Origin: a virus
Taxonomy: Duplodnaviria; Heunggongvirae; Uroviricota; Caudoviricetes
Direction: 5' to 3' (one strand)
IMG/VR virus record: IMGVR_UViG_2657245660_000016
Span: 1-8,587 of that record
DNA length: 8,587 nucleotides
Shown: positions 414-7,472 of the stretch, piece after piece
Numbering within the stretch: position 1 is the stretch's first letter
Layout of the letters: each line of letters opens with the position of its first letter
Program-made: the position numbers and the translations under genes
Notes under the pieces: generated by a model
The model's input: the letters and a program-made list of their open reading frames with translations, nothing else
The model's database searches: none
Told to the model about the DNA's origin: nothing

Positions 414-500
414 AACATTTAAGCTGATGACCACCGCGCTTTTTATTGACCATTTTGCACGCAAACTGGAAAACCTGGCGTCGTCATCTATTCTTAAAGG

Positions 501-603
501 GCAAGGCAACTAAGCCTGCATTAATGCCAACTTTTAGCGCACGGCTCTCTCCCAAGAGCCATTTCCCTGGACCGAATACAGGAATCGTATTCGGTCTTTT
601 TTT
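501..603 (+). ncRNA. sdsR: SdsR (RyeB)-like sigma-S-dependent small RNA
   Basis: About 100-nt ORF-free segment starting GCAAGGCAACUAAGCCUGCAUUAAUGCC. It contains three hairpins, including GGCTCT/AGAGCC at 543-560, and ends in a perfect 10-bp stem (570-579 with 587-596, loop AGGAATC) followed by a T7 run at 597-603. A -10-like CTATTCT at 488-494 sits about 7 nt upstream of the predicted 5' end. Sequence and position next to yebY match my recollection of sdsR/ryeB; not verified by search. Confidence 0.55.
570..603 (+). terminator. Intrinsic terminator of the SdsR-like sRNA
   Basis: GACCGAATAC (570-579) pairs perfectly with GTATTCGGTC (587-596); 7-nt loop; followed by TTTTTTT (597-603). Confidence 0.7.
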
Positions 604-636
604 AATTGTATTTAAAATCAATTAGTTGCAAACGTC

Positions 637-2058: not shown

Positions 2059-2168
2059 TGCCATACCTCTTACGATATGACCGCCAGCCAGTAAATATAC
2101 AGAATACTGGCGGGTGTGGTTGATTTTTAATAATCAGCTATGAAGTTCTAATTTGTATATAATGCAAC

Positions 2169-2357
2169 TCACGAGGACAGAAGTTTCTCGCAATTAAAAT
2201 TTATCAGCTTTACTTTCTGCTCTCTGGACACGCCTGCTTCTTTTTTCCCTGAGAGCATTTTTTCGCATTCTGATTTCGTTAATTTAGATTTTGAATATCT
2301 TGTCCAGTTAGTAGGAGTGCCACCTTCTTTTTCAATAGTGGCAGTTATTTTATACAT
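2169..2357 (-). CDS. ydaC: Small prophage protein, YdaC-like (DUF1187-type), 62 aa
   Basis: Start moved to the internal ATG at 2357-2355, which has a strong SD (GGAGGTG, 5-nt spacing). This start overlaps the ralR stop by 8 nt (ralR ...CAT GTA TAA; ydaC ATG TAT AAA), indicating translational coupling. The position between xis and ralR matches Rac gene order. Family assignment is from memory. Confidence 0.65.
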   Translation of the reverse strand: MYKITATIEKEGGTPTNWTRYSKSKLTKSECEKMLSGKKEAGVSREQKVKLINFNCEKLLSS

Positions 2358-2544
2358 GAACACCTCCATTATTATTTCCAGTGGTTCGTTTATTCCATCT
2401 TTCGAGTGCTTCTTTTTCACTTCCACCATAACCGGTTCGGGATTCGCATCCGTTACACTTCGCTCGGTAATATCCTGAAATGGCTTTCACCGTTACTGAT
2501 GGACAACCACAAAATGGACATGGTTTAACATTGTCATATCTCAT
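2350..2544 (-). CDS. ralR: RalR / Lar-family restriction-alleviation protein, DNase toxin of the RalR/RalA type I TA pair (64 aa)
   Basis: Translation from the internal ATG at 2544: MRYDNVKPCPFCGCPSVTVKAISGYYRAKCNGCESRTGYGGSEKEALERWNKRTTGNNNGGVHV. It is Cys-rich with CPFCGC and CNGC motifs and matches my recollection of Rac RalR. The 77-aa tracked ORF is an upstream in-frame extension. Confidence 0.8.
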   Translation of the reverse strand: MRYDNVKPCPFCGCPSVTVKAISGYYRAKCNGCESRTGYGGSEKEALERWNKRTTGNNNGGVHV

Positions 2545-7061: not shown

Positions 7062-7472
7062 TTTCTCTCACCTTTCATCACTGAAGTGAACTTTGTTGAT
7101 GCGGTGCCTGGTGCCTCCAGGTGACGTTAACCAGTTAACAATTAACGCCGGATAATCCACCCATAACACTGATGCTTTTAACTGTGCCGCGTGCGCTCAG
7201 CCGCATTCACCGCATCACAAAATTCACTTTAAAAAGGGGCGGCAGGGCAGCCACGGAGTAGAACTGATGCCGCCAAGACTACACACAGCAATGTCGTTAT
7301 TTACAACCGGAGGCGCACTCCCACCATTTAAATTTAACAGACAAGACCGACTCTTTATGGATATCGGAAATGCGCCTTCGTGTTGTGCCCGGTTTTATTT
7401 CACCACCTCCGGGCTTTGGTGGTTTCTGCTATACCCCTACAGCGAGAATATTGAATTAATCCAAATAATGGA

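Follow-up and report, generated by a model that had tools for sequence, protein, structure and literature searches.

The closest described system to the locus studied here is the RalR/RalA toxin-antitoxin pair of the Rac prophage of E. coli K-12, known since 2014. In the curated record of K-12 MG1655, ralA (b4714) is a 179-nt ncRNA at 1413556-1413734 on the plus strand. It lies opposite rcbA/ydaC (b1347, 1413531-1413740, minus strand), and the stop codon of ralR (b1348, 1413733-1413927, minus strand) shares 2 nt with its end. RalA supplied in trans from pBAD neutralises RalR in K-12 (Guo et al. 2014, PMC4041452). The same study found that T63C, G64C and a 4-nt seed mutant impair the antitoxin and that the matching ralR mutation restores it, and that the activity requires Hfq (PMC4041452). 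In K-12, RalA lowers the RalR protein and not its mRNA. According to primer extension the RNA begins 62 nt before a so-called '16-nt repeat', and its predicted terminator (GC-rich stem of 5 bp, loop of 14 nt, then four U) gives the length of 179 nt (PMC4041452).

Judged by its sequence, the locus in the window (the window being the whole stretch of 8,587 nt analysed here) is this known type I pair, carried by a Rac-like recET prophage in the form of a common natural ralA allele. It is an ordinary locus. The Rfam covariance model for RalA (RF02694, 'RalR antitoxin') matches 2173-2351 on the plus strand over its full length (model positions 1-179 of 179) with 219.2 bits and an E value of 5e-53, the gathering score of the model being 170 bits. 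The alignment of K-12 b4714 to 2150-2400, which a preliminary description of this DNA had proposed as a check, is colinear and gapless with ~97% identity. Because of the full-length model match and this colinearity, the plus-strand RNA of ~180 nt predicted in that description can be equated with RalA. Its proposed start near 2170 is at most 3 nt away from the model start at 2173 and its length is 1 nt off, and the RNA runs on the strand opposite ydaC, as had been suggested. The positions given there for TATAAT (2158-2163), TG (2154-2155), the ydaC stop and the 3′ limit of ralR all agree with the sequence. The arrangement of RalA, ydaC and ralR (Table 1) is that of K-12: the whole of RalA is antisense to the ydaC/rcbA homolog, and the final 2 nt of RalA lie in the ralR stop codon. 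The antitoxin had also been said to be easily missed, and this is indeed the case, because E. coli genomes annotated automatically by PGAP show ralR and the DUF1187 gene but no ralA.

Table 1. Features of the ralR/ralA region, with positions in the window.
Feature	Position	Strand	Basis or detail
ralR, 64-aa DNase toxin, Lar family	2350-2544	-	ORF; NF007260, PF14354; MRYDNVKP...GGVHV
ydaC/rcbA homolog (DUF1187), 62 aa	2169-2357	-	ORF; Pfam PF06688 129.5 bits
RalA small RNA, antitoxin of RalR	2173-2351	+	179 nt; RF02694, K-12 b4714 colinearity
Candidate ralA -10 hexamer TATAAT	2158-2163	+	sequence; -15 to -10 relative to G2173
RalA nt 63-78, '16-nt repeat'	2235-2250	+	UGCUUCUUUUUUCCCU; position transferred from Guo 2014
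RalA target within ralR CDS	2407-2422	-	mRNA nt 123-138, codons G41-A46, 5′-AAGUGAAAAAGAAGCA-3′
RalA intrinsic-terminator-like hairpin	2318-2351	+	stem 2318-2323/2338-2343, loop 2324-2337, tail GUUAUUUU

Taken as a whole, the locus is best explained by the known antitoxin RNA RalA, and we give this reading a probability of roughly 85%. Transcription would most likely start at or just upstream of G2173 from a -10-dominated promoter (TATAAT, without a -35 element), the RNA would proceed antisense through ydaC and it would end at a weak hairpin with a U tract that extends over 2 nt of the ralR stop codon. RalA nt 63-78 would pair with ralR codons 41-46 by 11 contiguous Watson-Crick pairs, followed by a G.U pair, a mismatch, a C-G pair, a further mismatch and a U-A pair, and the pairing would lower the RalR protein rather than the mRNA, as in K-12. 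The match of sequence and model, the colinearity with K-12, the complementarity of seed and target and the terminator hairpin were computed here; the K-12 experiments supply the 5′ end, the dependence on Hfq, the activity as an antitoxin and the rescue by compensatory mutations. We infer that TATAAT is the promoter and that the RalA of the window allele would be expressed and active.

The toxin call of the preliminary description is confirmed. The RalR protein scores above the cut-off with the NCBIfam RalR equivalog NF007260 (166 bits, cut-off 113), with TIGR03655 (55.3 bits, cut-off 39.6) and with Pfam PF14354 (Lar_restr_allev; 53.5 bits, cut-off 28.6), and the DNA of its CDS is identical to K-12 ralR. 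The neighbouring ydaC homolog ends with TGA on the minus strand (TCA on the plus strand) at 2169-2171, and its ATG overlaps the ralR stop in ATGTATAA at 2350-2357. YdaC is polymorphic in length, with 62 aa in the window and several K-12-like alleles and 69 aa in K-12 RcbA, which is 7 codons longer. The short 62-aa form puts the RalA 5′ end and its candidate -10 outside ydaC, and it contradicts the published statement that RalA lies wholly within ydaC. On the ralR strand two sigma-70-like sites were found (2642-2613 and 2570-2543, both minus), a count no higher than in shuffles. TTAACC-18-GATAAT at the recT end could be the promoter of ralR itself, with a leader of ~60 nt, and a start from TTGAAA-16-AATTAT would fall within ralR.

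The position of the pairing region follows from the K-12 work: the repeat begins 62 nt past the 5′ end and the mutants T63C and G64C match T2235 and G2236, therefore it was placed at T2235. Here RalA nt 63-78 read TGCTTCTTTTTTCCCT, and the ralR target on the plus strand reads TGCTTCTTTTTCACTT. These 16 nt are complementary to the ralR CDS with 11 contiguous pairs, since the first 11 nt of the repeat pair with the target without a mismatch. On the plus strand this core (TGCTTCTTTTT) occurs only at 2235-2245 and 2407-2417 in the whole window, and it is longer than in ~98% of shuffles. The local duplex amounts to -17.3 kcal/mol in the window vs -19.8 in K-12. For the full-length RNAs the predicted duplex was a meaningless chain of internal loops, and local duplexes were used instead. 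In a set of 31 distinct sequences of the region, obtained from 88 related loci, the ralR target is invariant throughout (31/31), and target and 11-nt core together are invariant in 27. The short complementarity to the ralR mRNA expected in the preliminary description thus exists, but it lies in codons 41-46 and not at the ralR 3′ end. The overlap drawn there at 2350-2366 has to be reduced from 17 to 2 nt of ralR CDS, because the RNA model stops at 2351. An identification of the 16-nt complementarity with the 3′ overlap was rejected for the same reason, and the experimentally tested K-12 pairing site is ~60 nt deeper in ralR than the RalA 3′ end. No literature joining RalA with RIL-seq was found.

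An interaction at the ralR 3′ end, as the preliminary description had pictured it, comes close to a model in which RalA acts mainly in cis, which we consider unlikely. Provided that ralR and ydaC are on one long leftward early transcript, RalA is perfectly complementary to the 179 nt directly 3′ of the ralR stop, and this 179-nt duplex with the ralR-ydaC mRNA, not the 16-nt match, would control ralR (and ydaC). Co-transcription of the two genes is indeed likely, because of the overlap of the ydaC ATG with the ralR stop and because the ydaC, kilR and ralA signals go up together, more than 70-fold, when RacR is counteracted (PMC6765115), which is expected of one repressor-controlled leftward operon. 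A review also sees an organisation that suggests interaction by overlapping 3′ ends, the ends being unmapped (PMC4147584). However, in K-12 the RalR produced by a construct with ralR alone is neutralised when RalA is supplied on a separate plasmid, and the loss of the effect in the seed mutants together with its restoration by matching ralR mutations argues that the 16-nt match is sufficient (PMC4041452). Moreover, no RNase III cleavage site was found at ralR/ralA (PMC6212723), and RalA shares only 2 nt with the ralR CDS itself.

The preliminary description had found no clean terminator for the RNA. According to the fold prediction a terminator is present, although a weak one: a 6-bp GC-rich stem with a 14-nt loop is followed by the U tract GUUAUUUU up to 2351, with a folding energy of -9.8 kcal/mol (z = -1.8), which fits the Rho-independent terminator predicted for K-12 (PMC4041452). 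The terminator scan tool reports no RalA hairpin here because the loop exceeds 8 nt. The fold of the whole RalA is no more stable than that of shuffles (z = -1.28). The accessible part of the supplementary Term-seq tables on K-12 3′ ends (PMC7815308) lists neither ralA nor rcbA nor ralR, none of its coordinates starts with 14135, and its single '14137' match is not a ralA position. An in-vitro run-off study (PMC10301672) contains nothing on ralA.

The RalA of the window differs from that of K-12 at eight positions (T7A, T36C, A57C, A75C, G110A, C156T, G171A and A174T). Of the eight differences within the ydaC codons common to both, seven are synonymous. One pair of the 5′ stem-loop is lost with T7A and another with T36C (7-34 becomes A.A and 5-36 becomes A.C), and the consensus stem is missing from the minimum-free-energy fold of the first 42 nt (-3.3 vs -5.5 kcal/mol). 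A75C costs the 16-nt interaction one flanking A-U pair. G171A, on the other hand, replaces the closing U.G by U-A and makes the base of the terminator stem stronger. Owing to C156T the loop 2324-2334 (CUUCUUUUUCA) is complementary to ralR 2409-2419 over 11 nt without a mismatch (-12.5 vs -8.3 kcal/mol); the C at RalA nt 156 in K-12 breaks this match, and the partner of the loop is the ralR site of the published seed. The motif CTTCTTTTT is present three times, at 2237, 2324 and 2409 (spacing 87 and 85 nt), and since (E/K)KE codons lie on the strand opposite each of them, codon repetition may explain them.

The broken 5′ stem-loop belongs to a natural variant. The same RalA sequence is present in six other loci (seven in all), and the window-type 46-mer (2140-2185) was found in 231 of 5,426 complete E. 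coli genomes, 1,922 of which carry the locus. Therefore the window ralA is a circulating allele and not a lesion, with a share of ~12% among the ralR-carrying E. coli genomes. E. coli GCEC19 and O26 RM8426 are examples of strains with the window-type sequence. The window is a natural chimera, in which ralA/ydaC of one type (loci L083-L089) are combined with ralR of the K-12 type. The recombination joint is at ~2352-2383, and the L083 group differs from the window ralR at 10 sites at least.

Other alleles are altered in the seed. Two loci (L016, L025) have a 12-nt in-frame deletion of RalA nt ~58-69, by which most of the seed is lost and YdaC GKKEAGVS is changed to GKIS. One locus (L060) carries T63C, which is known from the K-12 mutants to weaken the antitoxin, and another one (L053) T63A. 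In all four the 64-aa RalR is intact and the ralR target unchanged. Comparing the 17 distinct RalA sequences from the window and the 88 related loci reveals no compensatory base-pair change, and the variation is mostly synonymous for ydaC. Out of 19 substitutions at Rfam-paired positions 13 break the pair and six keep it by a one-sided change, none being compensatory, so the Rfam structure of RalA is without covariation support in this sample.

Distant ralR-ydaC pairs, with RalR 67-75% identical, are found in Citrobacter braakii (L009) and in a soil MAG (L010). Their RalA matches of 35 and 29 bits are below the threshold and are probably due to ydaC coding conservation, and no seed-target complementarity above chance was found in these two loci. 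They therefore neither support nor refute the RalA structure. The RNA antitoxin may, from this comparison, be confined to Escherichia-type Rac elements. The ralR/ralA locus was also found with 90-100% identity in a MAG labelled as uncultured Roseburia (L006) and in the Actinobacillus phage vB_Apl-pPE4 (H88); these host attributions probably reflect mis-binning or contamination and not a true host range.

Could the plus-strand RNA be free of any selection as an antitoxin? In that case the conservation would be that of YdaC/RcbA coding, the seed would be a by-product of Glu-Lys-Glu codons and TATAAT a chance hexamer in AT-rich DNA. We regard this as quite improbable, and yet as a real caveat. 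The synonymous character of seven of the eight differences would be in line with it, and so would the predominance of pair-breaking substitutions without compensation, the unremarkable z of the whole fold, the intact RalR beside a deleted or mutated seed, the (E/K)KE codons opposite all three CTTCTTTTT copies, and the Citrobacter-type homologs with ralR and ydaC but without complementarity. However, the direct genetics in K-12, namely trans complementation, seed mutants, compensatory rescue and Hfq dependence (PMC4041452), is not overturned by these points. RalA was moreover detected by RNA-seq in eight out of eight conditions (PMC12266141), and 27 of the 31 distinct sequences show no change in target and core. 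A further reading, in which selection would not uphold the pairing of RalA with ralR in natural Rac-like prophages, is suggested by the ydaC-like variation without compensation, by the damaged-seed alleles with an intact toxin and by the second 11-nt complement in the loop 2324-2334 of the window allele, and we think it just as doubtful. If it were true, the antitoxin would be dispensable at native expression, or the loop contact would act besides or instead of the published seed.

Coming back to the preferred reading, in which RalA is a genuine antitoxin with its own promoter, the hexamer at 2158-2163 matches the -10 consensus in six of six positions (local sequence ...TTTGTATATAATGCAACTCACGAGGACAG...). 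T2154 and G2155 are present upstream of it, in the arrangement TG-TA-TATAAT. The canonical extended -10 is TGnTATAAT; because two bases separate TG from the hexamer and one is needed, a reading as an extended -10 was rejected. At a spacing of 16-18 nt there is no -35, the best candidates by eye (CAGCTA, TCAGCT) having 2/6 matches, and a two-hexamer promoter scan of the plus strand from 1900 to 2800 reported no site. Upstream of the hexamer there is an AT-rich tract (2123-2134). TATAAT is not enriched in the window, with two copies vs 3.9 +/- 2.0 expected from shuffles. K-12 has TACAAT at the same place, and all 31 distinct sequences of the region share T-A-(C/T)-A-A-T, including those with an early ydaC stop, in which the hexamer is intergenic. 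This conservation does not single out the hexamer, because the flanking bases and intergenic DNA are equally conserved. A sigma-70 start is usually ~7 nt past the -10 hexamer, with a range of roughly 5-9. G2173, the ortholog of the mapped K-12 end, is 10 positions past T2163 (9 nt between) and therefore at the long end of this range, and the canonical start would be C2170 or A2171. The K-12 end was derived from the size of a 110-nt extension product, so it may in our view be off by a few bases.

No ralA promoter was defined by Guo et al., who state only that 'native promoters function', and their primer-extension plasmid ended at the ydaC stop, which leaves ~25 bp upstream of the 5′ end with the -10 but not a -35 (PMC4041452). 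These ~25 bp fit a -10-dominated promoter. The promoter call is plausible, its function being judged from position and conservation only, and we take TATAAT as the probable -10 of RalA. That RalA is real but its 5′ end arises by processing of a longer plus-strand RNA coming from upstream, antisense to xis, is hardly to be expected, for although the missing -35, the long spacing, the mapping of the K-12 end only from an induced plasmid and the 124 bp of upstream DNA in pBAD-ralA (PMC4041452) would allow it, the ~25 bp in the primer-extension plasmid held the hexamer but little else, and no better plus-strand promoter was found in 1900-2170.

The prophage surroundings contain further small RNAs. 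SraC/RyeA (463-607, minus strand, 179 bits) and SdsR/RyeB (504-603, plus strand, 118 bits) form a convergent pair, with yebY (1-342) on one side and the integrase gene of the prophage (735-1811, 358 aa) on the other, and this places the prophage next to yebY/ryeA/sdsR and not at ttcA. A full-length match to the DicF small RNA (RF00039, 54.7 bits) is located at 7237-7287 on the minus strand, in the immunity/early region. In K-12, DicF belongs to the prophage Qin and not to Rac.

Beyond annotation the locus carries little weight. Because ralA is absent from the automatic annotation, flagging RalA in Rac-like prophages is useful. A slight addition concerns the promoter of ralA, for which the original paper gave no definition and the hexamer at 2158-2163 is the obvious candidate. 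Furthermore, the natural alleles vary in promoter strength, seed pairing and 5′ stem and represent a ready-made allelic series for the antitoxin mechanism.

In comparison with RalR/RalA of K-12 Rac (b4714, RF02694, PMC4041452), the window has the same gene order recT-ralR-ydaC-xis-int and the same ralR CDS. Its RalA agrees with that of K-12 in length and position, in the 11-nt core and its target, in the architecture of the terminator and in the 2 nt shared with the ralR stop. The window differs in the eight RalA positions given above, in the -10 (consensus TATAAT vs TACAAT), in the length of ydaC (62 vs 69 aa), and in the prophage, which has a different integrase and another place than K-12 Rac at ttcA. 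Among other type I systems, IstR-1/TisB, OhsC/ShoB and OrzO/ZorO are like RalA in that the pairing is short (16-21 nt) and imperfect, and the sRNA gene adjoins the toxin with the pairing site apart. However, IstR-1, OhsC and OrzO pair in the 5′ UTR and are Hfq-independent, whereas RalA pairs inside the CDS and is Hfq-dependent (PMC4147584), and TisB, ShoB and ZorO are small membrane peptides whereas RalR is a soluble DNase. TxpA/RatA and BsrG/SR4 of Bacillus subtilis share with RalA an antitoxin which is convergent toward the 3′ end of the toxin gene, and theirs is the geometry assumed in the preliminary description. But RatA and SR4 overlap the 3′ region of the toxin mRNA by tens of nt and trigger its decay, while RalA reaches only 2 nt of the ralR CDS and in K-12 affects the RalR protein and not the mRNA.
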